From: Bacteroidales bacterium
GTDB lineage: Bacteria > Bacteroidota > Bacteroidia > Bacteroidales > Paludibacteraceae
DNA length: 64,000 bases
Direction: 5' to 3'
Assembly (NCBI GenBank): GCA_004557405.1
Contig: SFDZ01000009.1
Location: 15,014 to 79,013, forward strand
Under the pieces are notes generated by a model. It was given only the letters and a program-made list of their open reading frames with translations. It was not told the origin of the DNA and ran no database searches. Positions 16,850 to 53,837 of the stretch are shown in pieces; position 1 is the stretch's first letter, and each line of letters begins with the position of its first letter. The position numbers and the translations under genes were made by a program.

Positions 16850-18771
<1,922 letters not shown>

Positions 18772-18858: not shown

Positions 18859-19434
18859 CTAATCTAAGGATTCGGGTTCGTCTTCGTCTGTACTTTCAGC
18901 GACAGAAGCATCGAAAGCCAAAAAGACTTCGAGAAAAGCGGTCTCGCGGTAGAAAAAGTTGGGGTCATCAGTCAGTTTGTCCTCCATAAAATGGAACCCC
19001 CAGTTGGCGTATTCCTCCATTGTCTGCATCAGCATATCAACGGCTTTCCGCGGTGTCATTTCGCCTTTTTCAAGAGCGATGAAATCAATATCGGTGCGGG
19101 CGACAAGGGCAGTGAAAATGTACTCACGTAGTTTAGGGTAGGCTTTTCGCCCTTTTACAGAATCCAAATTGCCCCAATACTGGATGGGCTGGCCGAAAGT
19201 CTTGCGTTTTTGCGTGTCTTCTATAAGCGGTCGTTTTTGGTTGAAATACAGCCCTATAAAAAATGCCACAATAAATATTTCATAACCACCGCCAAAGACT
19301 TTGCCTCTGTCTTCGCGTAAAGATGTCGCACCACGACCGTAATCGCAAAAGTTCTTGATGATACTGTCCTCGTATCTCTTTTCCCATTGCGGGTTTCGGG
19401 CTGCCCACAAATCATATATCTTTTCTGCTGCCAT
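18859..19434 (-). CDS. Hypothetical 191-aa protein with an acidic C-terminal tail (last gene of the island operon)
   Basis: ATG 19434, 6 nt after the stop of the SMC-like gene. I recognise no motif with certainty. It may correspond to a small dnd-associated protein family (to be tested). The tail is SVAESTDEDEPESLD. Confidence 0.6.
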   Translation of the reverse strand: MAAEKIYDLWAARNPQWEKRYEDSIIKNFCDYGRGATSLREDRGKVFGGGYEIFIVAFFIGLYFNQKRPLIEDTQKRKTFGQPIQYWGNLDSVKGRKAYPKLREYIFTALVARTDIDFIALEKGEMTPRKAVDMLMQTMEEYANWGFHFMEDKLTDDPNFFYRETAFLEVFLAFDASVAESTDEDEPESLD

Positions 19435-19440
19435 AATTCG

Positions 19441-21615
19441 TTATCTTATTTGTGTAACAATCGTTTGAATGGTTGATAAATCCTTATCGTTGAAAGGCTC
19501 GACTTTCTCAATCCGATAAACAGAACAAGAAAGTTTATTGATTGTATCGAAATCCAATGCCTTTTGTCCTGTTGCCTTGTCGATGTTTAGCAAATCTTTC
19601 GTAACGATAACACATTGCTTGTCAATGGTATCTATCACATTGTAGAATGTATCTTCCTTGAAACCACCGAATGAAGATGTTGGCGCATCAAAAATCAATG
19701 GGTAATCCTGCTCACGTTTCAAAGTTGTGATTTGGGAAATGGCAAACAGAACCGACATATACATTGTTGTCTTCAATGCACCGTTTGGATTCTCAATGCG
19801 TGTGCCGTTGTCGCTGTATAGTTCGATACGTGCGGAATTGTTGATGGTTTTTCTGATTCGGATTATACCGTAGAAGTCGTTTTTGTTCAACTTCTGTAAA
19901 TACTTGTTCGATTCGGTTTCAAGCATTTGCAGGAAGTTGTTGATGTTTTGCTCTTTTGCGTTTGCAAATGCTTTGGTTATTCGTTCAAATGCGGTGTGAA
20001 CACGCTGATAAACCTGTGTCATTGAACTTGTTGGTTCAAGTTGCGACAATTTTTCTTGTATTTCAGCCCTCGCACTCTCCTTGAATTTCAATGTGGTTTC
20101 CAATTCAGAGACACGGCTTTCCGCACGGCTTTTAGCGTCAAAGAAGCCTCTCAAATCGGATATGCTCTTGTCAAGCAGTTCCGCACTTAACCCCGATTGC
20201 ATCAGCAAATCGTTTTGTTCTGTTTCTAATTCTTGCAACTGTTTTTCCACTTCTGCCAACTCGGCTTTTCTTTTAGTGACAAATTCCAAACGGTCGGAAA
20301 TGGTAGTCGCAATCTTTGAAATCTCTTGCTCTGTGTCTCCACTCAATTTGATTTGGCGAGAATGCAATTCATTGATGAATGAATTGGGAAACAGCGGCTT
20401 ATCGTCCTCTTCATTTGTGCCTGAATTTTTATTGGCCTCCGCTGCTATATGGGCAAGATATTCATTCAGTTTGTTGCACATAAACTCGTAAGCCTCCGAA
20501 CCTTTGGGGGCTGGGCGACCGCAGACTTTGCAGATTTCATCGTCAATCATTTCTTTCATTGTAGCCTCATCGGGCAAATTCCACGGCAAAGGAACAGCAT
20601 CATTGGCAAGTTTCTGGATTTTTGAGATAGCCTCACGTTCTCCAGCCTCTTTTGCTCTGCGTTCTGTTTCCTGCTTGTCAAGTCTTCGTTTTTCTTTGCT
20701 CAAAGCAGAGACTTTTGTGGAAAACTCTTTTATGATTGCAGGGAAGGAACGCAGAATCCAATATTCGTCCAACAGATTGGTGCTATACTCGCACGATGAC
20801 CATGCAACCAACTTCGCCCGTTTGTCTTTCAGCCCTTTGATGCGCTCTTTTATGGCTTGGTAGCGTTCCGATGTTTCTTGGTTCTTTTCCAATAATTCCA
20901 ACTTTGAGGAGAACTCGTTGATGGAAACTTTCTTTTGATTAAGTTCCGTTTTGAGGTTCTGAATATCGTTTGTAACATCATTCAGTTGCGTATTCAGTTC
21001 TTTTGCCTGATTAGATACCCTCTTGTCGTTTTGCAATTCTCGGTTTGACGCATTGGCTGATTTCTGTTCGAAATTTGATGTCATTTCTACCAACTCATCA
21101 AATTGTCTGATGCCCGAGAAAGTATCAACCAAAGTTTTCAATGCCGTATCATTGTCGAATACATTGAGTTCATTTTCGCCCTTGAACAAACAATACTTAC
21201 GAATGACAGGCTCGAAACATATATTCAAAAGCCTGTCGCCTGCGGTGAAATGGCGTTCGGCTCCTTCAATGAAATAACCAGAAAATTTGTAACCCCTTGT
21301 GCGGTATTCCGAATCAGATATTCTTTCAAAGGTGAAACTTTTCTCAATCTCCTTCTCGCCGTCGTGCTCAAACGTTATGCTGACAGAAACCTCATCGGAC
21401 TCACCAATTTCCAATTCTGATTTGCGTTTTTCGGAAATGTGTGAATCTTTTCGGTTCTCGCCTGTTGTGTCGAACAGCCATTCCAACGCCTCAAACAAGG
21501 TCGTTTTGCCATCACCATTATCTCCGATTACCAAAGTCAGACCTTTTGATAATGAAAGGTGATTGCTTCCATAGTAACTGCGGAAGTTGTTTATTTTTAT
21601 ATCTTTGATAATCAT
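19441..21615 (-). CDS. SMC/Rad50/DndD-like ABC-type ATPase with a central CxxC (zinc-hook-like) motif
   Basis: 724 aa. N-terminus IKINNFRSYYG...LTLVIGDNGDGKTTLFEALEWLF (Walker A, aa 31-39). About 400 aa of coiled-coil-type sequence with CKVC at aa 362-365, the exact midpoint. C-terminus YPLIFDAPTSSFG (Walker B / D-loop). Confidence 0.75.
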   Translation of the reverse strand: MIIKDIKINNFRSYYGSNHLSLSKGLTLVIGDNGDGKTTLFEALEWLFDTTGENRKDSHISEKRKSELEIGESDEVSVSITFEHDGEKEIEKSFTFERISDSEYRTRGYKFSGYFIEGAERHFTAGDRLLNICFEPVIRKYCLFKGENELNVFDNDTALKTLVDTFSGIRQFDELVEMTSNFEQKSANASNRELQNDKRVSNQAKELNTQLNDVTNDIQNLKTELNQKKVSINEFSSKLELLEKNQETSERYQAIKERIKGLKDKRAKLVAWSSCEYSTNLLDEYWILRSFPAIIKEFSTKVSALSKEKRRLDKQETERRAKEAGEREAISKIQKLANDAVPLPWNLPDEATMKEMIDDEICKVCGRPAPKGSEAYEFMCNKLNEYLAHIAAEANKNSGTNEEDDKPLFPNSFINELHSRQIKLSGDTEQEISKIATTISDRLEFVTKRKAELAEVEKQLQELETEQNDLLMQSGLSAELLDKSISDLRGFFDAKSRAESRVSELETTLKFKESARAEIQEKLSQLEPTSSMTQVYQRVHTAFERITKAFANAKEQNINNFLQMLETESNKYLQKLNKNDFYGIIRIRKTINNSARIELYSDNGTRIENPNGALKTTMYMSVLFAISQITTLKREQDYPLIFDAPTSSFGGFKEDTFYNVIDTIDKQCVIVTKDLLNIDKATGQKALDFDTINKLSCSVYRIEKVEPFNDKDLSTIQTIVTQIR

Positions 21616-21845
21616 ATATTTGATTTTAGAAAATTACTAACCTCGTTGTAGATTTCCCTTTCTGTTGCTTTTTGCTCATTTCGATTGATGATTTGAGCAA
21701 TGGCTTTAATTACAGGAATATCAGAATCCAAAGCGTCTGAAATTGAACTGTAATCATCGGGATTATAGCCATAGAAATTTATAAGCTGCTCATCAGCAAT
21801 CACAGCTTGCAAAATCTTATCTCCGTTGGTTTGATACGTATTCAT
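21612..21845 (-). CDS. Hypothetical 77-aa protein, translationally coupled (ATGA) to the SMC-like ATPase
   Basis: ATG 21845 lies 6 nt after the helicase stop, and its stop overlaps the ATG of the next gene. No recognisable motif. Very AT-rich. Confidence 0.55.
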   Translation of the reverse strand: MNTYQTNGDKILQAVIADEQLINFYGYNPDDYSSISDALDSDIPVIKAIAQIINRNEQKATEREIYNEVSNFLKSNI

Positions 21846-21851
21846 ATTGCA

Positions 21852-24128
21852 CTAATTAAATATGGATAGATTATAATGATTCAATACTTCTTGCAGTTCG
21901 TTGTCGGTATCATTCAGATTCTCTGACAACAAAGCAAAATCACGAACACGCCTCAACTCGCTTTGCACAAAGCTTTTCTCCAAAGCATAACATTCTTCAT
22001 CAAATACATTGTCAGGTATTACGATGAGGTCGTGAATGATGGCAAAACGCTTATCCTTGTGCGTGCGAAGAACACGACCACGGCGTTGAATGAATTGGCG
22101 TGGGTTTCCCGTGCTTGCGCAGAAAATAGCCAGTTCGCTTCGTGGCACATCAACACCTTCATCAAGGCACTTCATTGAGGTAAGCACATCAATGCTTCCA
22201 TCGGCAAACCCTTTGAGCATTGCATCACGGTCTGTCGATTCGGAAGTGAACTGACGGACAATGATATGGGAATCCATATCACGAACAATGCGAGTGAAGT
22301 CGTCAATCAGATGTTCGGTTTCGGGGTCGGACGCGATAGTGTCGGAATGGTCGAAAATATCAGCCTCGAAATTATCGGGCTTGTTGCCTTCGGGAACATA
22401 GACCAACGTGTATTTCAGACTGCCTTTTTCTTCCATACGCTGCCGAACAATTTCCTGAAAAGCGGATAACTTGTTGGCGGCTTTGTGAATGATGCGTTTG
22501 CGTTTCAGCAAAAGCATTTTCAATCGTTCCTGGCTTTCATCGTCACGGAAGCCCATTATTTTGACTATCTTCTTTGAAAGTTCAACATATTCAGCCATCT
22601 CGTTTTCAGTCAGGCGAACAATGTGTGGATAATAGTAATATCGGCACAAAGCCCCATTCTGAATGGCTTCAGCCATTGAATATTCGAAAGTGTAACTGTC
22701 AGAACAGCCAAAGAAATCCATCAGTTTGCGGTTGCCCGTATCGTCAAACTGTCGTTCGGGTGTTGCAGAGAGCCCAATGCGACGCAAATATTTTATGTCC
22801 GAAAGGCGTTGAGCCATCAAGCCACCGCCCATATTGTGAGCCTCGTCAGCGACAAGCAATAGTTTGTTTTTGGGGAATTGGTTCAATTCCATAAAAACAT
22901 TGGAACGGACAAACGAAGCGTAAGTTGATATGATTATGTAAGACAAATCGTTGTCGGCGTTTGTCATTTCAAGTAAGCGAAGATTGGCAACCGCCGATTT
23001 CCAATTGTTATACTTTGAGCAAACTTTTATAATGGTGCTGAAATTAAACTTTTTACATTCAATTTCCCATTGTTCGACAAGTGTAATGGTTGGAACAAGG
23101 ATAATGGCTTTGTAGTAGCCCAACTTGTTGTATATCTCAAGCAGACAGTTCAGTGAGGTAATGGTTTTGCCAGTACCTGTTGCCATTGCGAACAAGCCTT
23201 TCTGTTGGTTGCTCTTCCAATTCTCGAATGCTTGTTTCTGATATTCACGCGGACCAGATTCGTATGGGAAACGAGGCTTGCCAAAGTCAATTGGGGTGAC
23301 TTCTTCGCCTTTGGTCTTGAGTTTTTCAATTTCAACCTCAACTTTGTTCTTGGCTTTCTCCAGTGCCTTAATCACAGATTTGGGCAATGACTTATCAGCA
23401 ATATCCTGTTGGATAAATTTGTACTCATCTTCAAGCAAATCTTTCAATTCCTTGTTTTTGAACGATTCGGCAATATGTGTTTTCACTCTGTCGGTCGGAA
23501 CAAAAACGACATTTTCATCTTTGCCCGTAAAAACAAGTTCAAATTCTCCGCTGATTTTGTTTATTGTAGCAGACGCTGGATTGCCGTCCCAATCGCAGAA
23601 CGCCGTGAGGCTTTCAATGTTGTCAATCAATGCCGACCGTGAAAAGTTGCAAGAGCCATCGAAGCCGACCTTGTTCACGCCATCGCTGAAAATGCCTGTC
23701 TTTGTGTGAGAAATGCCAATGCCGTCTTTGGGTGCAACGATTCTAATATCAAGCCGATTGTTGCGAATGAGCCACGCAAGGCAATCGAAGAAGTGTGCAT
23801 CACGCTCTGAAAGAGTGTTTCTCAGTTTCTCAATGTCTGTAATATCAAAGAAAGGAATTGGCGTGTCAAGTTCTCCGTTGGCAATGGCGTTTTTATCCTG
23901 CTCGGTAAGGATGTCGTTTACAATCAGATTCATACGACCGCCATTATAAAGGAATGAAGCAAAACCATCAGCCAATACATTGATAGCTGAAGAAGAGAAG
24001 AAGCCCAACATCAAATTGAACTGTGTGGCATTACACAGACAATCAGCGAAGAAACCGATAGGCTCCCACTCTGTCCGCGATTTGAAATGGCGGTGTGCTG
24101 GAAATGAGACTTCTTTGAGCATGATCAC
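21852..24128 (-). CDS. PLD-family (HKD) nuclease domain fused to an SF2 DEAH helicase (ResIII-type)
   Basis: 758 aa from GTG 24128 (GTGA overlap with the DGQHR gene) or 756 aa from ATG 24122. HKD motif ISHTKTGIFSDGVNKVGFDGSCNFS. Helicase motif I FAMATGTGKTITS, II LLLVADEAHNMG, III GLSATP, VI FIQRRGRVLR. Confidence 0.8.
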   Translation of the reverse strand: MIMLKEVSFPAHRHFKSRTEWEPIGFFADCLCNATQFNLMLGFFSSSAINVLADGFASFLYNGGRMNLIVNDILTEQDKNAIANGELDTPIPFFDITDIEKLRNTLSERDAHFFDCLAWLIRNNRLDIRIVAPKDGIGISHTKTGIFSDGVNKVGFDGSCNFSRSALIDNIESLTAFCDWDGNPASATINKISGEFELVFTGKDENVVFVPTDRVKTHIAESFKNKELKDLLEDEYKFIQQDIADKSLPKSVIKALEKAKNKVEVEIEKLKTKGEEVTPIDFGKPRFPYESGPREYQKQAFENWKSNQQKGLFAMATGTGKTITSLNCLLEIYNKLGYYKAIILVPTITLVEQWEIECKKFNFSTIIKVCSKYNNWKSAVANLRLLEMTNADNDLSYIIISTYASFVRSNVFMELNQFPKNKLLLVADEAHNMGGGLMAQRLSDIKYLRRIGLSATPERQFDDTGNRKLMDFFGCSDSYTFEYSMAEAIQNGALCRYYYYPHIVRLTENEMAEYVELSKKIVKIMGFRDDESQERLKMLLLKRKRIIHKAANKLSAFQEIVRQRMEEKGSLKYTLVYVPEGNKPDNFEADIFDHSDTIASDPETEHLIDDFTRIVRDMDSHIIVRQFTSESTDRDAMLKGFADGSIDVLTSMKCLDEGVDVPRSELAIFCASTGNPRQFIQRRGRVLRTHKDKRFAIIHDLIVIPDNVFDEECYALEKSFVQSELRRVRDFALLSENLNDTDNELQEVLNHYNLSIFN

Positions 24129-25378
24129 AACGTTATTTCTGATATTCGTCGTTCTGCTTCCTGTAAATCAATATTGAATATCGTCGCATATTTGCTCTTC
24201 ATAGAACTTTTTTCTTTTTCAGTCAAAAGATTTATGTCTATCATTTTAATCAATAGGTAATAAACCAATGACTGATTTCTCATAATCATTTTTTTTGTTC
24301 TTGGATTCCATAAAATCATATCCCAAATATCTGAATGGACACACCGATTCAAATTGGTATAATTTTTTATTATCTCATCAATTGAATTAGTAGTTGTTAT
24401 GGATATTCTTGAGACAGCCTCAACAAATGGCAACAAACCTATTGGGCGGAAAAACAAGTTTCCTCCATTCTCACTAGAACGTAACTCTTCGGCAGGATTG
24501 TTAGAATTGTCATTAATGTAATTATTAATCTCATTAAATGTGGATTTCATACAATTCCAGAACTGTATCAAATAATCATTAAATTCATTGATAATTTCTT
24601 CTTCAGGTCTGTATTTTAGTTTATCATTGATTTGAGAATTATTGTAGGTTTTCCCATCTTTTTGGCTTATAAATGTTTTATATAATACCAAGTGACATTG
24701 ATACAATGTCATAAGCGATGTGAATGCTTCTTTGTCTGATTGTGGCATTGCTTTGCTGTTGCTAATTTTAATTCTATTACCCATAAATAAAGGATAGGAC
24801 TCCAACAATTCACGAGTTACTATAGCAACAATGTCGTCTTCATCAAGAGCAATAATATCCCCTAAACGAACAGGTTTGACATACCTGTTAAGCGTAGAGA
24901 AGATTCTTCTTGATTTTTCCCTGCCTACTGGTGTATTTTGATGACCAATAAGCATCACACTAATGGTTTCTCTGCCCAACTCTTCGTTTTCAATTAATGC
25001 AGCTCTGATTCCTTCAACTCTATGCTGACCATCAACAGGGAATATTTTTTCTTGTCCTGTAAATTCTAGCAATCCGACGTTATGATAAGGATTGTTCTCT
25101 ATTTCAAATCGAACTTCTGTCCACATTGGTTCCCCGTCATAAACTGCAAGAACAAGACTATCAAAAAAACGGTCTTCACGTTTTAGAATGTATTCTTTTA
25201 TCTTGATAAAATTATCTGTAAGAGAACGTTGGATTTGTTCTTTTAAAGAATTTGCAGTGTGTAATTCATCATCTACTTTTCTTACCATTGTACTAATTTG
25301 TCTAAAAGTCAAAGTAGTAGAATAGTAAACGGTATTGCCTATCTTTCCTCTTATGGCAGGTATTTTTATTGCTTCCAT
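24125..25378 (-). CDS. DGQHR-domain protein (DndB-like, ParB/Srx fold)
   Basis: 417 aa. IFPVDGQHRVEGIRAAL (DGQHR at aa 116-120), followed by RRIFSTLNRYVKPV, as in DndB/DGQHR families. About 30% GC. Confidence 0.8.
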   Translation of the reverse strand: MEAIKIPAIRGKIGNTVYYSTTLTFRQISTMVRKVDDELHTANSLKEQIQRSLTDNFIKIKEYILKREDRFFDSLVLAVYDGEPMWTEVRFEIENNPYHNVGLLEFTGQEKIFPVDGQHRVEGIRAALIENEELGRETISVMLIGHQNTPVGREKSRRIFSTLNRYVKPVRLGDIIALDEDDIVAIVTRELLESYPLFMGNRIKISNSKAMPQSDKEAFTSLMTLYQCHLVLYKTFISQKDGKTYNNSQINDKLKYRPEEEIINEFNDYLIQFWNCMKSTFNEINNYINDNSNNPAEELRSSENGGNLFFRPIGLLPFVEAVSRISITTTNSIDEIIKNYTNLNRCVHSDIWDMILWNPRTKKMIMRNQSLVYYLLIKMIDINLLTEKEKSSMKSKYATIFNIDLQEAERRISEITL

Positions 25379-25380
25379 AA

Positions 25381-25905
25381 CTAAAATGCATTAATTGGTT
25401 CTTGGACTTCTATTTTATCTGGTATTTCAGAATTAAAAGGCGGTCTAATCGCTCTAATAAGAGCAACCTCATTTTTATCTATTATGTCATTATTCGTTTC
25501 TGGATAATAACGATAAAACAAATAATCTTTCCAATACTTTTTCATTCTTACAATTTCTGTTCTGGAATTATCGGAATCATACTCTTTAGCACGTTTACGA
25601 ATATATTGTTTCCCCTCGGAATAGTGGCATCTTCCAATATATACAATGTATTTTTCAATAAACGGAAGATTAATACCTTTAAGATAAAACATATATACAC
25701 CACCTGTATTCGTCGGTAGATTATTAATATCTTCAGAAACAATGCTACCTTCATAATACTTTATTTCTTTTGACCAATGAGCTTCCTCAACTATGGGATT
25801 AGCATTGTCAATCTTATTGTCAACCCAATGTTTAGGATTGTGATAATAAGTTATATCATATAACTTATCCTCATCATTTTCATTTATGAATGCGTTAATT
25901 CTCAT
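25381..25905 (-). CDS. GIY-YIG-like nuclease domain protein
   Basis: ORF 25381..26010 trimmed to ATG 25905 (1 nt after the PAPS-reductase-family stop). GGVYMFYLKG ... KYIVYIGRC ... IRKRAKEY ... NEVALIRAIRPPFN reproduces the GIY / YIG / R / E..li....P.fN pattern. Confidence 0.6.
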   Translation of the reverse strand: MRINAFINENDEDKLYDITYYHNPKHWVDNKIDNANPIVEEAHWSKEIKYYEGSIVSEDINNLPTNTGGVYMFYLKGINLPFIEKYIVYIGRCHYSEGKQYIRKRAKEYDSDNSRTEIVRMKKYWKDYLFYRYYPETNNDIIDKNEVALIRAIRPPFNSEIPDKIEVQEPINAF

Positions 25906-25906
25906 A

Positions 25907-27010
25907 TCATATAAAACAATTAGCACACATAATTTCATCGCCAAGAACATCAACAAGCGTTGTTCCTTTGCTTTGCTTGCGGTTTTCTTCCTGACGCTTA
26001 ATAATGTCAAGCTTTATTTGGCGTACACGTTCGGGATTGCATAATTCAGCCAAACTCTCGTTTTGATTCCATGTATAGCCATCTTTTTCAAACTCCATTG
26101 CTTGTCGATATAAATCAGGGTGTTGCTCGTAGAGCCAAATCCATTCTATCTTCTGTTGGAAAAAACAGAAATAGCAACCTGAACGGCTACGGCAATATGT
26201 TCCTACTTTCCCATCTACTTCAAATGGAATTTCCTCATAATATGCTGGAACGCCTACGCCACTTTCTCGAAGCAATCGGAAAATGTCTTCTTTCACAAGA
26301 ACATCAGTGTTGTCAAGCAACGGAAAATCATCCAATTTGCCTACAGGGTAGTCTGTGGTTTTCAAAAAAGCGAACACAACTTTATTGAATAGTTTTATGT
26401 CAAAATCCAACAGGGCATTCAGTTTTTTTGAATAATAAAACTGCTTTGTTATTTGTTTAGTGACAGTTTCCATAAGCTCGTCTTTCATAAAGTTGTTGGG
26501 GCATAGCAAATCGTACAATGAAACAAACTGCTCCAAGTTGTCGTTATGCAACACTTTGTTTATCACATCAAGGCTCCAAATGTTTCTTCTGAAAGGAAAC
26601 ACCGCCTGAATGTTCGGCTTTGACGATATGTAACCGTCGCGGTCCTCGTCGCCACGAATGCCAACGTATGAGATTGCCAAATCGTCGCCAACATACTTTT
26701 CAAACTCTGCTAGTTTCATCTTCTGTGTGCACCAGCGAGCTTGAGGCGAAGGCAAGAATCCTCCTGCGGCTTTCAAAAAATGGTGGAACGGTGTGGGTTC
26801 GGAACTGCCCTCGGCCGCCCGCAGTCTTACAATTTTTCCCAAATAGGTTTCGAGCCTTCGGATAAGCACCTCGGTTTCCTCCAACTCACAACCTGTGTCC
26901 GAATTGTAGTATTCAATCTTCAGATTCGGATATTTCTGTTTCAAGTATATGGAAAGAGCGGCGCTATCTTTCCCGCCTGATATTCCTAATATGTGTCTTA
27001 CGTTGGTCAT
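25907..27010 (-). CDS. PP-loop ATP pyrophosphatase of the PAPS-reductase family (SspD/DndC-like)
   Basis: 367 aa. ILGISGGKDSAALSIYL (SGGKDS at aa 11-16). C-terminal cysteine cluster CRSRSGCYFCFF. ATGA overlap with the upstream YhcG gene. Confidence 0.8.
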   Translation of the reverse strand: MTNVRHILGISGGKDSAALSIYLKQKYPNLKIEYYNSDTGCELEETEVLIRRLETYLGKIVRLRAAEGSSEPTPFHHFLKAAGGFLPSPQARWCTQKMKLAEFEKYVGDDLAISYVGIRGDEDRDGYISSKPNIQAVFPFRRNIWSLDVINKVLHNDNLEQFVSLYDLLCPNNFMKDELMETVTKQITKQFYYSKKLNALLDFDIKLFNKVVFAFLKTTDYPVGKLDDFPLLDNTDVLVKEDIFRLLRESGVGVPAYYEEIPFEVDGKVGTYCRSRSGCYFCFFQQKIEWIWLYEQHPDLYRQAMEFEKDGYTWNQNESLAELCNPERVRQIKLDIIKRQEENRKQSKGTTLVDVLGDEIMCANCFI

Positions 27011-28137
27011 CGCTTTTCTTCGCTATCAAGTTCTAATTCTATATCCTCCATTTGTGGCAAAGCCGATTTTACATCCGCAAAAAGTTTTTCCGTTTCGTAT
27101 TGGGCTATACCAAGAGGTTGCGTCACACCACGCAAGGCGAATTTTGCTTTTGTGTCGCTTTTGGTACGACAAAGCAACAAACCTATTGTCGGATTATCCT
27201 CCGATGTCTTAACATATTCGTCCACAGCCGATATGTAAAAGTTCAGTTTGCTGACGAATTCGGGAATAAACTCCACTGCCTTAAGTTCAACCACCACATA
27301 GCAATGCAGTTTCAGATGATACATCAAAATGTCAAGGTAGTAATCATCGCCATCTACGGCCAAATGATACTGCCGCCCTACAAAAGAAAAACCTCGCCCC
27401 ATTTCAAGCAGGAAATCTGTAACTCTTTTTGTCAATTCTTTTTCAATGCTACGTTCATTCTGTAATGCGGCAGAACCAATAAAGTTGAAATTGTAAGGGT
27501 CTTTGAATGTGTGTTGTGCCAAATCGGATTGAATTGGCGGCAATGTATTGATGAAATTGTTGATGGATTTTCCTTTGGCGTATATGTAACCATTGGCGAT
27601 TTGCGCCAACATAACATCACGACTCCAGCCTTCTTGCTCTGTAGCCAGGATATAAAATGCGCGTTCTGCTATATCCTCAACTTTCGGGATTAGTGATATA
27701 TGGTGATACCAAGTGATTTGAGTGAGAGACACTTGAATATGATCTTTGCCTTTTTCTGCCAATTTGGCAAGTGGCACTTGCCAAAATTCAGAATTCTCCA
27801 ATTTGGCAAGCGGCACTTGCAGAATTGGGAAATCAGGATAGGCTTCGGCAAAACGCTTCATATTTCTCAAATTTCTATCTGAGTACCCCTTGTCATCGGG
27901 AAATGATGCAGCCAAATCTTTCGATAGCTGGGCGATAACTTGTGTTCCCCAACCTTGTTCTTTCTGCTTTTTTATGATGTCGGTGCCAATCTTCCAATAC
28001 AGAGCCAATAGTTCGGCATTAACACAGAGCACGGCTTTGTATTTTGCTTGTGCTATCAATGTTACAATATCCTGCCGCCAATTTTCGTAGCCTTCGGGCA
28101 TAAAGCCAGCTTTAATTATGTTTTCTATATCTTTCAT
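27007..28137 (-). CDS. YhcG/DUF1016-family PD-(D/E)xK nuclease
   Basis: 376 aa. N-terminal DUF1016-type helical domain (LYWKIGTDII..Q.EQGWG..VI.QLS.DL...FP...GYS.RNL..M..F). Nuclease core GDDYYLDILMYHLKLHCYVVVELKAVEF. ATGA overlaps on both sides. Confidence 0.8.
   Translation of the reverse strand: MKDIENIIKAGFMPEGYENWRQDIVTLIAQAKYKAVLCVNAELLALYWKIGTDIIKKQKEQGWGTQVIAQLSKDLAASFPDDKGYSDRNLRNMKRFAEAYPDFPILQVPLAKLENSEFWQVPLAKLAEKGKDHIQVSLTQITWYHHISLIPKVEDIAERAFYILATEQEGWSRDVMLAQIANGYIYAKGKSINNFINTLPPIQSDLAQHTFKDPYNFNFIGSAALQNERSIEKELTKRVTDFLLEMGRGFSFVGRQYHLAVDGDDYYLDILMYHLKLHCYVVVELKAVEFIPEFVSKLNFYISAVDEYVKTSEDNPTIGLLLCRTKSDTKAKFALRGVTQPLGIAQYETEKLFADVKSALPQMEDIELELDSEEKR
27759..27820. repeat. 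39-nt in-frame tandem duplication inside the YhcG gene, containing a 23-bp palindrome
   Basis: CCAATTTGGCAAGTGGCACTTGC (27759-27781) and CCAATTTGGCAAGCGGCACTTGC (27798-27820) match at 22/23 with a 39-nt period, encoding QVPLAKL twice. TTTGGCAAGTG-G-CACTTGCCAAA (27763-27785) is a perfect palindrome. Confidence 0.9.
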
Positions 28138-31100
28138 CGCTTCATTTTCTTATTCAATATTTCAAGCAACGCGCAGATTTCCGCATTGCTGTTGCCCGAA
28201 AGTATCGCGTTTATTTTTGCCTCTAACTCCGAAACTCGCTTTTTGTCCTTTTCAGGCAGAATGTATGTCTGCGTTCTGATGCTTGTTCCGCTATTCGTCA
28301 CCATATCAAACGAATAGGCGACATCACTGTCAGAAATTGCTTTCTTTGAAATGTCGGCGTACTTTTCGCACTCGCGAAAAAGGAACACCAAGTCATCGGC
28401 TAACTTATCCTCTTCTTCGTCGCGCAGCGATTCGAGTTTATGTTCCAGAATCGGATAACAAATGGACTGATACCACAATGTGCGGTTGTCATACTCTGCC
28501 ATCACGTGCTGATAGAATTCCTTTTGCTTGGCTGTCAGCAAATGCGTTTTGACATTTGCCAACCGTTGCCTGATTTCCTCAACATACTCGTTGTAGTCGG
28601 CCGATTCAAGCCCAAGTCCGTCAACAAGACGGATTTCAAGGCGGTCGATGAGTTGCGAGTAGCACGAACGCAACTCGCGTATGGCCTTCTGTATCACATT
28701 GCCGTATTCTTCGATGTCGGTGTCAGATTTCGTTTTTTTCGTAAATCCTAAAGCGTCGGGTAAATCTTCGAAAAACGCCTTTTCGGGATCTTTGGCCGTT
28801 GCCAGAATATCGCGGAAGCGCATTGTGGATTTATGCGAGAACTTGCGGGTGTGCTTTGTGTAATCGTTTAACCTTTTGTAGAATAAAAGAAACGGCTTTA
28901 TGGTCTCGATAAAACTCTGCGTTGTAATATTGAACTCATCGCCTAAATTAACAAAGCGACGGTATTGGTTGAAGAAGTCGAGCCGTACGCCGTCCACCTC
29001 AAACGCCTTGACGGCATAGTCGGCGGGGTGCTTCTGCAGCAAATCGAAAAAGAGCATATCCACGTTGGGAATATATGCGCCTCGGTTTGTATCGTACAAG
29101 GCAAAATCCTGCCGCTTGATGAACAGGAACGTCGGTATCCAGAAATCGAGAAAACCTTGTTTCAGTTTGAAAGGCTGTGCTGACAGAATCTTTATCAGTT
29201 CCGATATTTTCCGCTGCTTGCCAACTGTGCTTTTCAGGAAACGCATACTCGCATTCCACAATGTGGCTATGCCATCGTTTGTGGGCGCATCAGCAAAACC
29301 GCTGCCTGTATGTAACCCTGTGTTTTTCAGCAATGAATAATAGATTGTTTTTTCGGGCGGAAATTTATCTTTTTCAAAACCTAAATCTACTTCATCATAA
29401 TGCTCGACAAGGGCGTTCAGATAGTTTTTGCGTGCCGAAGAAATTGCACCACTCAACTTGTGACGGTTGAACAACTCATTGAGCATTACAGGTGTCTCTG
29501 AATAAACTTCATCGCAAACTTTCGAGAGCAGTTTGTTGAAATCTTTATGTGAAGAAACCTTCTGTTTTTCGCCTTTGAAAATCCATACGACTTGATTTTT
29601 GTATGAGAAAAGGTTGTCGCTCACCGCTTTGTTGAGTAGCGTTTCCTCATATTCCTTCAGTCTCTGTATCTCGTTGTATGCTACACGGTCTGCTTCTTTG
29701 TCAATCAGCACTTTTGTCAGAATGTAATCGTATTTCTGAATGCTATACAGATGGTCAATGATTTTTTCGGTATTACTGAAATAAGCATAAATGACAGCGT
29801 GTTCTGTGTTTGCACTTGTTTCCTTGATGGTGTCGAGCGTATTTGCGTTGGCAGAAAAAATCAGCTCTATGTATCCGTCAGTATCACCCGTCGGCGTCAT
29901 GTCAACGGCATTTTCGCGTATTTCATACTCGAAATAACGGGGCGTGCCTTTATGGTAATAGTGAGCCTTGACTGGTGAAATGCGTTTGCTGACGAAGTGC
30001 CGCAAGTCATCGATAAAGGCTATCGGGCGTGCCACTTGAGTACCGGCTTTCTGAATCTCTAATTCCAAATCAATGTCGGTTCCTTCAAAAAGCAAAAGAC
30101 GCTGTTTGTATTCTGCATATCGTATGATTTTGAATCGTTGCAGTTTGCCGATAATATCTACAGCATCCTGCACGTTCATTGTCAAACGTGCATATTCAGC
30201 CATCTGTTCGGGCTTCATTGCAAAACTTGCTATTCCGAACAGATTCAGCAATCCGATAGCCTTCACAATTTTTATGGCATCTGTCATCTGCTCGGCATTG
30301 TTCCAATCCAACCCTTCAACTCTTTCGATAGAAACTTGTATTGAGTTCCAACCCATTGAGTCCATATTGGCATCTTTCAAGTATGAATAGAAGTTGTAAA
30401 CAATGTAGTCATATACGTGTGCCAAGTTGTAGGTCAGATTGGTGGTTGCTGTAAATTCGGACAATGAATTTGATCCGCAAGCAGCAAGGAACGAGAAAAG
30501 CGAGCGTTCGTTTTGTCCGTAACGCTGAATGGCGGCGGTAACAGCAAACGCCGAGAACGAGTCGAGCGGATAAAGTTGTTGTGCCGTTTCTGCGGAAAAT
30601 GCGTTGGAAACAAATTTTGTTTCAATAGCCAACTGATAGATTTGGCTTGCGGTTTCACTTCCTTTTTGCGGCAGGTTGGCATGCAACTGTTGCGAAGCCA
30701 AAAACAAAAGTTGTTCAATGGGTTCCACAAATGTTATTTCCTTGAACCTGCCTTTCACTTTTGTCCATTCGTTCTTCTGCGTTTCGGTCAGATTTCTGGC
30801 GTATGCTCCGAAGTTTTGGTGCAGCGTTGTCAGTAGCAATATATCGCGCGAAGGAACATTGATAAACTCCGCAAACTTCTGAAGAAAATACAACTCCTGT
30901 TCGGGATTGTTTTTGGCGGCGTGTTCCAGCACTTTGCCAAATTCGTCTATCACGATGAGCAAAAACTTATTCTGCTCTTTCAGTTGGTTGTAATACTTTT
31001 TCAACTCATCGAGAATGCTTTGCGACTGTCCGTCCATATTTAGATTTCGTCCCAACAAAGTGGAAAGTTCCATATAGTCGCCGACAATGTTCAGAATCTC

Positions 31101-31388
31101 AAAATCCGCTGTCTGCGAAAGATTTTTCGGATTCAACAGCCTTTTCGTCTTGTTGCCGCGGTTCAAATCCGATTCCAGAGCCAGAAGGAACGAAGATTTC
31201 CCTGTTCCGTATGTACCGATAATCGTAAACGAGTGTATTCCAGAACGAAAGTCGTCAATAATGTTTTGTGCTGCCTTTCTTCCGTTTGGAGTAACAATAT
31301 ATTGGAATTCAGCAGGGAATCCATTTTCAATATTTGCCGATAAGCTAAATCCTTTATTCATAGTAATTGTCCAATACTTGTTTTGCAT
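28134..31388 (-). CDS. Large P-loop NTPase (SspC-like / BrxC-PglY-sized ATPase)
   Basis: 1084 aa (1075 aa if the start is the second ATG at 31361). Walker A GTYGTGKS (aa 58-65), Walker B LLIVIDEFGK, then about 850 aa of mostly helical sequence. It overlaps the DUF4007 gene by 35 nt, or 8 nt from the second ATG. Confidence 0.7.
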   Translation of the reverse strand: MQNKYWTITMNKGFSLSANIENGFPAEFQYIVTPNGRKAAQNIIDDFRSGIHSFTIIGTYGTGKSSFLLALESDLNRGNKTKRLLNPKNLSQTADFEILNIVGDYMELSTLLGRNLNMDGQSQSILDELKKYYNQLKEQNKFLLIVIDEFGKVLEHAAKNNPEQELYFLQKFAEFINVPSRDILLLTTLHQNFGAYARNLTETQKNEWTKVKGRFKEITFVEPIEQLLFLASQQLHANLPQKGSETASQIYQLAIETKFVSNAFSAETAQQLYPLDSFSAFAVTAAIQRYGQNERSLFSFLAACGSNSLSEFTATTNLTYNLAHVYDYIVYNFYSYLKDANMDSMGWNSIQVSIERVEGLDWNNAEQMTDAIKIVKAIGLLNLFGIASFAMKPEQMAEYARLTMNVQDAVDIIGKLQRFKIIRYAEYKQRLLLFEGTDIDLELEIQKAGTQVARPIAFIDDLRHFVSKRISPVKAHYYHKGTPRYFEYEIRENAVDMTPTGDTDGYIELIFSANANTLDTIKETSANTEHAVIYAYFSNTEKIIDHLYSIQKYDYILTKVLIDKEADRVAYNEIQRLKEYEETLLNKAVSDNLFSYKNQVVWIFKGEKQKVSSHKDFNKLLSKVCDEVYSETPVMLNELFNRHKLSGAISSARKNYLNALVEHYDEVDLGFEKDKFPPEKTIYYSLLKNTGLHTGSGFADAPTNDGIATLWNASMRFLKSTVGKQRKISELIKILSAQPFKLKQGFLDFWIPTFLFIKRQDFALYDTNRGAYIPNVDMLFFDLLQKHPADYAVKAFEVDGVRLDFFNQYRRFVNLGDEFNITTQSFIETIKPFLLFYKRLNDYTKHTRKFSHKSTMRFRDILATAKDPEKAFFEDLPDALGFTKKTKSDTDIEEYGNVIQKAIRELRSCYSQLIDRLEIRLVDGLGLESADYNEYVEEIRQRLANVKTHLLTAKQKEFYQHVMAEYDNRTLWYQSICYPILEHKLESLRDEEEDKLADDLVFLFRECEKYADISKKAISDSDVAYSFDMVTNSGTSIRTQTYILPEKDKKRVSELEAKINAILSGNSNAEICALLEILNKKMKR

Positions 31389-32235
31389 CCAACTGCTGTG
31401 TAAACTGCAACTGCCTGATTCCTGCTACATCGCTGTAGGCCAAATAATTAGAATATTTTTCTGATAATATTTTCAGCATATCAATCACTTCCAGATCTGT
31501 CATACAAAATATTAATCCTAATTCGTGCAGAGTGTCGTATGGTATGCTGTTGTCGTTCTCCTCTTTTACCGTCAGCAAAGCAAACAGAAAAATGGCTGGA
31601 ATCACTTGTCGTTTGCCCTCTATGTTAAAGAAGTATCGGCTACGTTTGTCCTCTGAATTTTCCGTTTTATCACTTTGCCTGAGCAAATCCAAATCCATCA
31701 GTAGGGTTGAAAACTCCTCATTTGATTGCGGATTACGTGGTAAACAATAGTTCAACAACAAAACTCCGACATCCTTTTTGACTGTGTTTTCATTAAACAA
31801 ATTCGCTTTGCCCGCTTCAATCATTTTGCGCTTCACAAAATTGACCACTTGTTCTCGTTCGAACAGCCTGCGTTCTTTTTGGAAGTCAATAAAAAACATT
31901 TTGTATAAAGACGCTCCGCCAGTGTAAACTAAAAGGAAATGCAACAACCAAAGAGTCCCTAAATCTTCCGTAAATGGGTCTTTGCCAATATCAGTGCTAA
32001 AAATATACTCCGCAAGCCATTCTGTTTTTGCACCTTTATCCAATCCAAAAACTTTATACCAATAGCGAATAGATGATACCATGTTTTTGCCTACACCTAA
32101 ATCTACTACGGCATTGGGTGAGTTGAAATCTTTATGTGCTGTTACGAAATCATAACCTTTTTTCGTCCACAATGTTTTACAAGGAAATGATTCATGACCT
32201 GAGAATGTGTATGCTTTGTTATTGTGTACATCCAT
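31354..32235 (-). CDS. DUF4007-family protein (SspB-like, phosphorothioation-associated)
   Basis: 293 aa. The N-terminal block YTFSGHESFPCKTLWTKKGYDFV matches my recollection of the DUF4007 signature (F.rHEtF..R..Wl.Kg). As I recall, the family is described as co-occurring with PAPS-reductase genes. First gene of the operon. Confidence 0.6.
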   Translation of the reverse strand: MDVHNNKAYTFSGHESFPCKTLWTKKGYDFVTAHKDFNSPNAVVDLGVGKNMVSSIRYWYKVFGLDKGAKTEWLAEYIFSTDIGKDPFTEDLGTLWLLHFLLVYTGGASLYKMFFIDFQKERRLFEREQVVNFVKRKMIEAGKANLFNENTVKKDVGVLLLNYCLPRNPQSNEEFSTLLMDLDLLRQSDKTENSEDKRSRYFFNIEGKRQVIPAIFLFALLTVKEENDNSIPYDTLHELGLIFCMTDLEVIDMLKILSEKYSNYLAYSDVAGIRQLQFTQQLDAKQVLDNYYE

Positions 32236-32397: not shown

Positions 32398-34317
32398 TTA
32401 TTTCACTTCTTCGAAATCGGCATCTTGTACGTTGTCGTCGTTCTTGTCGTTGCTGTTGCCGGCTTGCTGTTGCGCATTGAAGTCGGCACCGGCGTTTTGC
32501 GCGCCTTGCTGCGCATTGGCGGCGTTGTACATGTCCTGACTTGCAGCGTGGAAGGCGGTGTTCATCGCTTCTATCGCTTTGTCGATGGCGTCCAAATCCT
32601 GTGCTTTGTGCGCTGCTTTCAGCTCTTCGAGGGCTTTTTCGATAGGCGCTTTTTTGTCGGCCGGAATCTTGTCGCCCAGCTCTTTCAGTTGTTTCTCGGT
32701 TTGGAATATCATGCCGTCGGCCTGATTCAGTTTGTCGATGCGTTCGCGTTCTTTCTTGTCGGCGTCGGCATTGGCTTCGGCTTCGGCTTTCATGCGTTTG
32801 ATTTCCTCTTCGCTCAAACCGCTCGATGCTTCGATGCGGATGGTCTGCTCTTTGCCGGTGGCTTTATCTTTGGCCGATACTTTCAGTATGCCGTTGGCAT
32901 CGATGTCAAATGTAACTTCGATTTGCGGAACGCCGCGCGGTGCGGCCGGAATGCCGTCGAGGTTGAACATACCGATTTGTTTGTTCTGGCTGGCCATCGG
33001 GCGTTCGCCTTGCAGCACGTTTATTTGTACCGATGGCTGATTGTCGCTGGCGGTGGAGAACACTTCCGATTTCTTGGTCGGAATGGTGGTGTTGGCTTCG
33101 ATGAGTTTGGTCATCACGCCACCCATGGTTTCGATGCCGAGCGATAGCGGTGTTACGTCAAGCAACAACACATCTTTCACTTCGCCGGTGAGCACGCCGC
33201 CTTGGATGGCTGCGCCTACGGCTACCACTTCGTCGGGGTTGACGCCTTTCGACGGCACTTTGCCGAAGAATTTCTCAACCAATTGTTGGATGGCCGGAAT
33301 ACGTGTCGAGCCGCCCACGAGGATCACTTCGTCGATGTCCGATTTGCTCAAACCGGCGGCCTTCAGCGCGTTTTCGCACGGTACCAAGCAGGCTTGTATC
33401 AGACGGTCGGCCAGTTGCTCGAATTTGGCGCGGGTCAGTGTTTTTACCAAGTGCTTCGGCACTCCGTTCACCGGCATGATGTAGGGCAGGTTTATTTCGG
33501 TCGAGGTCGAACTCGAGAGCTCGATTTTGGCTTTTTCGGCTGCCTCTTTCAAACGTTGCAGTGCCATCGGGTCTTGGCGCAAATCGACGCCTTCGTCCTT
33601 TTGGAATTCGTCGGCCAGCCAATCGATGATGACGTGGTCGAAATCGTCGCCGCCGAGGTGCGTGTCGCCGTTGGTTGATTTTACTTCGAATACGCCGTCG
33701 CCGAGTTCAAGAATCGAAATATCGAACGTGCCGCCGCCGAGGTCGAATACGGCGATTTTCATATCTTTGTTCGATTTGTCGAGACCGTAAGCCAAGGCGG
33801 CTGCGGTGGGCTCGTTGACGATACGGCGCACTTTCAGACCTGCAATCTCGCCGGCCTCTTTGGTGGCCTGACGTTGAGCGTCGCTGAAGTATGCCGGCAC
33901 GGTGATGACGGCTTCGTTCACCTCCTGACCGAGATAATCTTCGGCGGTTTTTTTCATTTTTTGCAGAATCATGGCCGAAATTTCTTGCGGCGTGTACAGC
34001 CGACCGTCAATATCGACGCGCGGCGTGTTGTTGTCGCCTTTCACCACTTTGTATGGTACGCGTTCAATCTCTTTGCCTACGCGGTCGTAGGTTTCGCCCA
34101 TGAAACGCTTGATAGAATAGACAGTTTTGTGCGGGTTCGTAACTGCTTGACGTTTAGCAGGATCGCCCACCTTGCGTTCGCCACCGTCGATGAAAGCCAC
34201 GATGGAAGGTGTTGTGCGTTTGCCTTCGCTGTTGGCTATTACGACAGGTTCATTTCCTTCGAGGACAGCCACACACGAGTTGGTTGTGCCTAAGTCGATA
34301 CCAATAATTTTTCCCAT
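32398..34317 (-). CDS. dnaK: Molecular chaperone DnaK (Hsp70)
   Basis: 639 aa. [41 protein letters not shown]. Confidence 0.98.
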
Positions 34318-52662: not shown

Positions 52663-53751
52663 TTATTTTACCATTCGCGCCGTGGCGGCTATGCGTTTGT
52701 CGGTATATTGCACGACGTCTTTTATTACAAGTTTCTGCACCGCCGAGATGAAGGCTTTCATAAAATCAAAGTCGATTTCGTCGGAGGAAGTTATGGGGAG
52801 AGAAAGAACTGTACTGTTCATAGCTTCACGATTAAACTTGTGTGCATAGTCATATCCAGCGTTTGCTGTTGCAACTCTACAAGCAGAAATAATCATCATC
52901 GCAATCGATTGATTAAATGGTTGAAACTTCGGTACTAAATGTTGAATATGCTGATAACCGATGAAATCATCTTTTTGATAATACATCGTATCTGCACCAA
53001 GTGTTGTATCAGAGCAAGAAATTGTATTTCCTTTATTGTTTGCTTTAAGGTTTGAAAATCCCATTACGCCGTTATCTGTTGAGGAATTTGAAACAAGTGG
53101 AACATTGCCAGTTGCAGACAGAATTTGTGTGCTTGTTAGTTTATACCATTTTGTCGGGTTTATCTCGAACAAATCCCCAAGCCTGAATTTTCCCCACTTG
53201 ACATGCTCAAACTCTTCCAAAACCTTTTGCTCTGCTACGGTCAGTGCGTAATCTTTTAGCCCGGTAGTTTGCAGGTATGCGTTAAGTTCGCGTATACGCT
53301 CCTCTTCGAGTTCGCGCATGCGTTCCGCCTCGATTTCGCGTATAAACGACTCCATAAAATCGAAGTCGATGTTTTTTACGTTGTCACACGGATTTGAAAA
53401 ATCTAACGATTTTTCTTTTAGAGGAAGTTGGATTTTACAATTTCTTGCAACTTTCCAATGTCTAGCATATCCAAGATTTGGAATTTGTTTTTTCCAACTT
53501 GATATAATGAAAAGCAAATATTTCTCATTTGAAGTAAAAGGTTTTAAAACTTTTACATTATCTAGAACAGAAAAACTCTTTTTAGCAATATTTACAGTTC
53601 GTGTATGATCTCCAAAAGTTATATAAACAGGTGTTATATCATCACAAATAAATTCAGGATTATTTGTAAAACCAATAATTCCGTTATTTGAAGAATCAGA
53701 TGAATATGCAGGAAATTCAAAATCATCTGATAATTCTTCTTTTGAAAGCAT
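52663..53751 (-). CDS. HsdS-like specificity subunit with two target-recognition domains
   Basis: 362 aa from the first ATG. Two conserved spacer repeats, [33 protein letters not shown] and [24 protein letters not shown]. The TRD2 leader is [14 protein letters not shown]. The equivalent TRD1 leader ([14 protein letters not shown]) lies in frame upstream of the first ATG (see findings). Confidence 0.8.
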
Positions 53752-53837
53752 ATTTGTTACTTTTTGAAGTTCAAATAATTCTTCAACTCTAAATTCTCCC
53801 CACTTAACATTTTTTAGTTTTTCGTTAAGTGGGGAAT

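Follow-up and report, generated by a model that had tools for sequence, protein, structure and literature searches.

A strictly paired predicted GIY-YIG nuclease and DGQHR-domain protein linked to phosphorothioate modification loci

We describe an overlooked two-gene module that is strictly paired, occurs across phyla and is attached to phosphorothioate (PT) modification loci. It lies in a 64-kb stretch of DNA from a Bacteroidales bacterium (contig SFDZ01000009.1 of assembly GCA_004557405.1), hereafter the window, where a gene for a 174-amino-acid (aa) GIY-YIG family nuclease immediately precedes a gene for a 417-aa DGQHR-domain protein within an island of PT genes. The two genes are an obligate, translationally coupled unit, and this is the strongest result of our analysis. 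On the basis of sequence comparisons, we propose with moderate confidence that the pair is an optional module linked to PT loci and split into a sensor, the ParB-like NTPase, and an effector, the GIY-YIG nuclease. It resembles SspE and DndI in architecture, and it is outside that family.

Results

An obligate gene pair

To compare the pair across genomes, we assembled 116 loci (L numbers) by three routes, namely homologues of the GIY-YIG or DGQHR proteins, 80 metagenome loci picked by SspD similarity alone, and three annotated plasmids. Hidden Markov models of both families detected the two genes together in 44 of these loci and a single gene in none. The co-occurrence outside this genome that a first-pass annotation of the window had wanted surveyed is thus borne out, as all 44 loci with either gene carry both. 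In every pair-bearing locus the GIY-YIG gene is directly upstream of the DGQHR gene and on the same strand, with gaps of 0-2 nucleotides (nt) or overlaps of 1-4 nt between them. Even where identity falls to 25-30%, the two genes stay together, with examples from Bacteroidota, Spirochaetota, Saprospiraceae, Rhizobium and Roseobacter, so that the pairing reaches as far as Alphaproteobacteria. No fused GIY-YIG-DGQHR protein was present among the matches listed, and phage-borne copies of the pair were looked for and not found.

In the window, the open reading frame (ORF) of the 174-aa protein starts with an ATG at 25905, 1 nt past the sspD stop codon, and ends at 25381. Its TAG stop is followed after 2 nt by the ATG of the 417-aa ORF at 25378, and the stop codon of the latter (24125) overlaps the GTG with which the next gene, pbeA, begins. 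The first-pass annotation was correct about both ORF lengths, their coordinates, the 2-nt spacing and the location of the DGQHR motif at residues 116-120; the strand, which it did not state, is minus.

Two of the copies found look degraded. In L028 (3379-11667) the pair follows BrxC-PglZ-BrxL genes of a bacteriophage exclusion (BREX) system, and its DGQHR gene is frameshifted and split into two frames. The copy in L036 is fragmentary. A further GIY-YIG frame, at L031:9860-10441, is devoid of an ATG-initiated ORF of at least 70 aa and looks decayed.

The predicted GIY-YIG nuclease

The 174-aa protein appears to be a divergent and catalytically competent GIY-YIG nuclease, an assignment that we accept because of family-level evidence. 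We aligned 24 close homologues (alignment A1, also used to scan genome collections for pair-bearing loci) and 47 broader family members with a mean identity of 25% (alignment A2). In A2, the two Tyr residues of the signature motifs, Y71 and Y89, and G91 are invariant, and G69, R105, Y109, E146 and N158 are conserved in at least 90% of the sequences; F73 and R115 are also retained in the family. In A1, too, the motif residues of the core are invariant or at least 90% conserved. N-terminal to the core there are some 65 residues, among which W27, P37 and W44 are conserved.

Sizes are homogeneous across the family. The close homologues form 54 clusters, all of approximately 170-187 aa, and an exhaustive profile search yielded 329 representative clusters, nearly all of 160-200 aa. 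Pfam profile PF01541 is reached weakly by seven of the 24 close homologues (best E-value 8.7e-4). Among the 47 broader relatives, 26 match GIY_YIG_2 (PF20815; best 8.4e-5) and 15 match PF01541 (best 9.8e-7). When compared with the PDB, the broad family profile retrieved the N-terminal GIY-YIG domain of UvrC (1yd6, E 2.6e-4) and T4 EndoII (2wsh, E 0.028), and in the profile alignment the catalytic positions of the family coincide with the YIG, Arg, Glu and Asn of UvrC. The profile built from close homologues retrieved nothing relevant from the PDB sequences. An AlphaFold2 (AF2) model with a predicted local distance difference test (pLDDT) score of 72 has a core of beta-beta-alpha-alpha-beta-alpha topology, with strands at residues 68-75, 86-93 and 129-136 and helices at 102-111, 116-128 and 139-153. 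PADLOC v2.0.0 (2023), the sole defence-system library searched, has no model for this GIY-YIG subunit.

A DGQHR protein distinct from DndB

The partner had been taken for a DGQHR protein of the DndB type, and the profiles agree: it scores 104.7 bits with TIGR03187 (DGQHR; cutoff 58.85) and 110 bits with the Pfam DndB family PF14072 (E 1.4e-31; cutoff 29.1). With the DndB equivalog TIGR03233 it reaches 81 bits, far under the cutoff of 328. The DGQHR motif is invariant in alignments A4 and A5, which cover 24 close and five distant homologues. An acidic motif, IIALDEDD, is invariant from Bacteroidales to the distant L034 and L035 proteins, approximately 30% identical overall.

We consider the 417-aa protein to belong to the ParB superfamily because of this family assignment and the literature (PMC3632139, PMC10853773, PMC11662687). 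A sequence search against the PDB gave no match for it, and GmrSD_N (DUF262) did not match it either, its motif being DGQHR rather than DGQQR. The SspE and DndI structures were not among its Foldseek matches, and a profile-profile comparison with SspE was negative. We therefore claim no homology to the N-terminal domain of SspE beyond the superfamily relationship given in the literature.

Judging from these scores, the protein belongs to the DGQHR/DndB family, in a clade that is paralogous to, and distinct from, the regulator DndB. That it is DndB itself is ruled out by the sub-cutoff equivalog score and by its coexistence with a genuine DndB. The latter, from Rhizobium sp. NXC14 (L119), aligns to the pair-type profile over approximately 190 N-terminal residues only, with an E-value of 1e-16 vs 3.5e-67 for the pair-type protein. 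The two have in common the PF14072 family, the DGQHR motif and their optional presence in PT loci. The pair-type protein exceeds DndB by approximately 50 residues and diverges in its C-terminal half, and its gene always follows a GIY-YIG gene; moreover, this gene is found in mid-operon (sspD/pbeA) or next to restriction genes, not as the first gene of dndBCDE. Present annotation conflates the two clades: in RefSeq the partner is labelled 'DndB' or 'DGQHR domain-containing protein', and the nuclease 'hypothetical protein'.

Modification and restriction genes around the pair

With the exception of the two degraded copies, all pair-bearing loci examined have PT modification genes beside the pair. 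The modification partner is SspBCD in most cases and SspABCD in Roseobacter and L035. In L034 the pair is associated with a cluster of PP-loop and SspA/DndA-like desulfurase genes, and in Rhizobium sp. NXC14 with a complete dndB-dndC-dndD-dndE-desulfurase cluster, including its own DndB. On this plasmid (L119:7412-16705), a gene for a methyltransferase-domain protein with predicted membrane-like N-terminal segments is located between the pair and the dndBCDE and desulfurase genes.

The restriction genes in the vicinity are more diverse. PbeABCD follows the pair in the window and in most Bacteroidales, and it precedes it in L001, L030 and L032. A genuine SspE accompanies the pair in L021, L029, L031 and L033 (PADLOC E ~1e-285). 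In Rhizobium pTiK1_93 the partner is SspFGH, whose genes run in the same direction as the pair, with sspCD running towards them. Finally, Dysgonomonas hofstadii (L022) has no recognisable restriction partner, and the pair is the only candidate effector beside SspBCD. Since SspE, SspFGH and Pbe are all found alongside the pair, the latter is no replacement for SspE, and the earlier proposal of such a replacement is dismissed. That the pair might be part of PbeABCD was also rejected, since either occurs independently of the other: L022, L029, L031, L033, L035, L117 and L119 have the pair without Pbe, and more than 50 loci have Pbe without the pair. Pbe nevertheless lies directly next to the pair in the window and in most relatives from Bacteroidales.

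Optional cargo in a variable slot

Among the loci sampled by SspD similarity, 70 had enough downstream sequence to be informative (SspD identity 81-91%). The pair is present in eight of them, and SspD abuts PbeA directly in 51. The pair is therefore dispensable both for Ssp modification and for Pbe, and the idea that it might be essential for Ssp modification was rejected, as 62 of these 70 close loci do without it.

Other genes occupy the slot between sspD and pbeA in sister loci. It is filled by SspE in some of them, which makes SspE and the pair equivalents in position. In L044 (3661-5785), L077, L100 and L111, it contains genes for a 365-aa DUF262/GmrSD_N (ParB-like) protein and then a 341-aa Ser/Thr protein kinase. 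The pair is thus positionally interchangeable with SspE and with this DUF262-kinase pair. The latter represents another split combination of a ParB-like protein and an effector, in which a kinase replaces the nuclease, and its presence in the same slot follows a shared 'ParB-like plus effector' logic. Two small ORFs were also seen at this position.

Other sets of cargo were observed in the slot. In L039 (8122-12086), L040, L041, L048 and L051-L053, a 727-aa protein with two GHKL domains (HATPase_c_3/HATPase_c) is encoded with proteins of 367 aa and 220-233 aa, neither of which has a match in Pfam. The set in L078 comprises a 540-aa protein, an AAA ATPase and a 272-aa protein.

Base composition and history

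The pair had been described as the most AT-rich stretch of the island, and a profile of GC content over the window confirmed that 24-26 kb is the lowest part of the 64 kb. In 1-kb windows, GC is 0.339 at 24001-25000 and 0.320 at 25001-26000, the latter being the minimum, compared with 0.38-0.46 in the rest of the island and approximately 0.50 in the flanks. At gene level, GC is 0.299 for the GIY-YIG gene (0.22 at third codon positions, GC3) and 0.325 for the DGQHR gene (GC3 0.28). The values are 0.41-0.43 for sspD, pbeA and pbeC (GC3 0.44-0.47), and GC3 is 0.44-0.50 for the flanking island genes and 0.64 for dnaK. Another low-GC kilobase (0.364) is present at 53001-54000 of the window, in surroundings of approximately 50% GC.

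The dip is not due to chance, as it recurs in nearly every related locus (GIY-YIG gene 0.28-0.36, DGQHR gene 0.31-0.37, neighbours 0.32-0.49), and the low GC is kept even in relatives that are only approximately 50% identical at the protein level. As both dip and arrangement are common to relatives 49-83% identical, a recent acquisition by this genome is ruled out.

Identities to the window proteins are mosaic. They are 93% for SspD, 57% for the GIY-YIG protein, 77% for the DGQHR protein and 84% for PbeA in L002, and 75%, 78%, 76% and 92%, respectively, in L007. No gene of the island diverges faster than the GIY-YIG gene (median identity 57% vs 77% for the DGQHR protein and 83% for SspD). The low GC in relatives and the mosaic identities indicate that the module has its own evolutionary history and, from these comparisons, that it is exchanged among islands. 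Hence, of the separate acquisition proposed initially, the distinct history stands, and recency does not. Persistence of low GC at saturated synonymous sites might reflect cassette exchange from low-GC lineages, or else selection that keeps the expression of a toxic nuclease low.

Organisation of the island

The operon has the order SspB-SspC-(DUF1016)-SspD-[pair]-PbeA-PbeB-PbeC-PbeD, with every gene on the minus strand, between groEL and dnaK (Table 1). Around the pair, genes are separated by 1-2 nt or overlap by 4 nt. As the island genes abut or overlap, they form one operon. Neither a cysteine desulfurase gene nor sspA is present within the island. The 191-aa protein at the PbeD position had no match in Pfam, NCBIfam or PADLOC profile searches.

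Table 1. Genes and motifs of the PT island in the window
Feature	Position	Strand	Evidence or remark
dnaK (flank)	32398-34317	-	
SspB (DUF4007)	31354-32235	-	Pfam DUF4007 E 5e-69; PADLOC SspB E 3e-84
SspC ATPase	28134-31388	-	PADLOC SspC E 0
DUF1016/YhcG PDDEXK nuclease, variable cargo between sspC and sspD	27007-28137	-	Pfam YhcG_C E 1.6e-55; PADLOC PDC-S02
SspD (PP-loop ATP pyrophosphatase), directly upstream of the pair	25907-27010	-	PADLOC SspD E 5.6e-86
174-aa GIY-YIG family nuclease gene, stop codon included	25381-25905	-	ORF read; family-level profile evidence
GIY-YIG catalytic core, residues 68-158	25432-25704	-	G69-V-Y71 ('GIY'), Y89-I-G91 ('YIG'), R105, Y109, E146, N158
417-aa DGQHR-domain protein gene (DndB family, ParB superfamily)	24125-25378	-	Pfam DndB PF14072 and TIGR03187
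DGQHR motif, D116-R120	25019-25033	-	Read from sequence; invariant in alignments A4 and A5
Acidic motif IIALDEDD, residues 175-182	24833-24856	-	Invariant; putative metal or NTP site
PbeA (HKD/PLD nuclease and SF2 helicase), directly downstream of the pair	21852-24128	-	PADLOC PbeA E 0; TIGR04095 E 6.6e-123
77-aa PbeB-like small protein	21612-21845	-	ORF; related loci have 72-77 aa genes at the equivalent position
PbeC-like coiled-coil ABC ATPase, CxxC motif (CKVCG)	19441-21615	-	PADLOC PbeC E 9e-21
191-aa protein at the PbeD position	18859-19434	-	DndE cognate by position only; position conserved in related loci
groEL (flank)	17140-18771	+	

A second variable cargo slot of the operon lies between sspC and sspD. 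The gap between these genes is absent in 71 of 75 loci, and the DUF1016/YhcG insert is thus missing from most relatives. L002-L004 have genes for an AAA_15/AAA_21 ATPase and a 232-aa protein at this position. In L007-L009 the whole nine-gene cassette is carried by a conjugative element (type IV secretion system (T4SS) coupling protein TraG, topoisomerase, DUF3945/DUF4099), with a small HTH_3 gene ahead of it; in L008, sspB is broken by an insertion sequence with a DDE transposase.

Discussion

Several systems of modification-based defence combine a ParB-like NTPase with a nuclease. SspE and DndI are PT-sensing proteins that unite a ParB-like NTPase and an HNH nickase (PMC9646914, PMC11662687), and the type IV enzyme GmrSD, in which such an NTPase and a nuclease are encoded by adjacent genes, occurs in this split form and also fused (PMC4619093). 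The pair described here joins these modules as an undescribed form. The first-pass annotation knew of no description of it as a PT-dependent restriction module, and likewise we found the pair nowhere described in the searchable literature.

The pair and SspE/DndI are alike in associating a domain of the ParB-superfamily NTPase type with a nuclease beside PT modification genes. The pair occurs with both Dnd and Ssp modification, as DndI and SspE do when taken together, and SspE fills the SspD|PbeA slot in sister Bacteroidales loci. However, SspE and DndI have DUF262/DGQQR and a C-terminal DUF1524 HNH domain in one protein, whereas the pair has a member of the DGQHR/DndB clade and a separate GIY-YIG protein. 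SspE also differs in that it coexists with the pair in four loci, and so the pair is no substitute for it; PT sensing by the pair is a prediction. GmrS and GmrD differ from the pair by their DUF262 and DUF1524 domains and by their target, glucosyl-hydroxymethylcytosine DNA. The original suggestion of a split SspE analogue therefore needs to be narrowed. 'ParB-like sensor plus separate effector' is a fair architectural analogy and the slot is shared, but homology to the N-terminal domain of SspE is not detectable.

Such a module would most probably operate as follows. The DGQHR protein would serve as an NTP-dependent sensor or switch that responds to DNA or to its PT mark. It would bind the GIY-YIG subunit and license it to nick or cut DNA, with complex formation and the DNA target both being predictions. 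The module would thus add a nuclease layer keyed to the PT mark, alongside PbeABCD, SspE or SspFGH and not instead of them. In architecture it is a split counterpart of the fused ParB-like NTPase-HNH nickases SspE and DndI, assembled from another ParB clade and another nuclease fold. Its coexistence with other restriction modules resembles that of SspE and SspFGH, whose effects are additive (PMC8092258). More tentatively, restriction modules that sense PT, of which SspE/DndI and Dnd/SspFGH are two classes, might have in the pair a third and hitherto unrecognised one. It would be an enzyme of two subunits, with a DndB-clade ParB-like NTPase that reads whether DNA carries PT and gates a GIY-YIG nickase, in association with Ssp or Dnd modification.

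A number of observations weigh against the split sensor-effector reading. Taken alone, the 174-aa protein has no match in Pfam, NCBIfam or PADLOC at E <= 0.01, and so the GIY-YIG identity proposed at the outset holds through family profiles and conserved catalytic residues, not through a profile match of the window protein itself. The best Foldseek match of its model in the PDB, although a GIY-YIG enzyme (R.Eco29kI), is weak (E 0.14, template modelling (TM) score 0.42). The catalytic Asn is missing in some members, with PPMS in place of PPxN in the Roseobacter protein (L118). As for the 417-aa protein, its AF2 model (pLDDT 76.5) has the pNOB8 ParB-N domain as top Foldseek match, also weak (E 0.1), and hhalign of pair-type DGQHR proteins against seven SspE sequences gave a probability of 1.9%. 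The identities to the window suggest recombination between the two genes (83% for the GIY-YIG protein and 68% for the DGQHR protein in L013, 57% and 77% in L002), and such uneven values do not argue for a tightly co-evolving interface. Finally, most loci already have another restriction module, and so the pair could be regulatory.

In that regulatory alternative, the pair would regulate or limit PT modification: the DGQHR protein would adjust how strongly the modification enzymes are expressed or how active they are, and the GIY-YIG protein would remove or limit PT sites or process intermediates. In its favour, Pfam places the DGQHR protein with DndB, and DndB is a non-essential negative regulator found in only about half of Dnd systems (PMC4507180, PMC10853773), which parallels the optional nature of the pair. 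In addition, the pair mostly follows sspD inside the modification operon, and it is present whichever restriction module accompanies it. Nevertheless, this explanation is weakened because the equivalog score is 81 bits vs the required 328, because a genuine dndB lies in the same Rhizobium NXC14 locus, and because the nuclease partner is obligate and intact. A conserved, catalytically intact nuclease would be unexpected as the partner of a transcriptional repressor, and in pTiK1_93 the pair is oriented with sspFGH and towards sspCD. We thus regard a role in limiting PT modification as rather unlikely.

Somewhat less probable still is a PT-independent backup or abortive-infection effector, that is, a toxin-like nuclease restrained by the ParB-like NTPase and freed upon inhibition of the main system. 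PMC10853773 proposes such a role, as backup or suicide effectors, for URI (GIY-YIG) nucleases that border Dnd neighbourhoods, and envisages DndB as an effector or as NTP-depleting. The URI nucleases are similarly standalone members of the GIY-YIG superfamily linked to PT genes. They differ in that the accessible text of the same source describes neither an obligate pairing with DGQHR proteins nor an Ssp context for them, and the gene of the pair is internal to the operon, not at its boundary or on the opposite strand. In keeping with a backup effector, the pair is a variable occupant of a slot that houses diverse defence-type genes, and the GIY-YIG gene diverges faster than any other gene of the island. 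However, a generic abortive-infection module would be expected elsewhere too, whereas PT genes lie beside every non-degraded pair examined. The lone BREX-adjacent case has a frameshifted DGQHR gene, and the search for phage-borne copies was negative. A selfish, free-standing homing-endonuclease cassette that carries the DGQHR gene along is very improbable: GIY-YIG is a classic homing-endonuclease fold, and the pair is optional, low in GC and inserted between conserved genes at two positions relative to Pbe, but the protein has no DNA-binding extension like those of I-TevI or Seg enzymes, both genes have kept their conserved motifs, and across phyla, even at 25% identity, the nuclease gene stays paired with the DGQHR gene and confined to PT loci.

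If the pair is indeed a third class of PT-sensing restriction module, it could account for part of the ~84% of sspBCD clusters for which there is no known restriction partner (PMC8092258). Many dnd clusters are likewise devoid of a recognised restriction partner (PMC8092258, PMC10853773). A nuclease module gated by a DndB-like NTPase would be a new type of effector for PT-based immunity. It would also imply that ParB proteins of the DndB clade can be effectors and not just regulators, and it would offer a simple two-protein system to study how a ParB-like switch reads a backbone modification.

The island also provides observations on the modules that surround the pair. The combination of SspBCD and PbeABCD is the majority form among close SspD relatives, with SspD followed by PbeA in 51 loci. 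The published descriptions consulted couple Pbe with Dnd or with methylases, and not with Ssp. PbeA has an HKD-type motif of the form HxK...D...GSxN (HTKTGIFSD...GSCNFS), and the CKVCG (CxxC) motif of PbeC sits in the middle of the coiled coil. Both motifs are in line with the revised annotation in PMC10853773, in which Pbe comprises a CxC ABC ATPase of the Zn-hook kind and a nuclease-helicase of the HKD type, and not with the original non-cleaving model. SspD of the window's clade is 367 aa long, vs 277-280 aa in the PADLOC model and in proteobacterial SspD proteins (L035, L117, L118). The PADLOC SspD model aligns to it in two stretches, and the extra C-terminal part has the Cys-rich motifs CRSRSGCYFCFF and MCANCFI.

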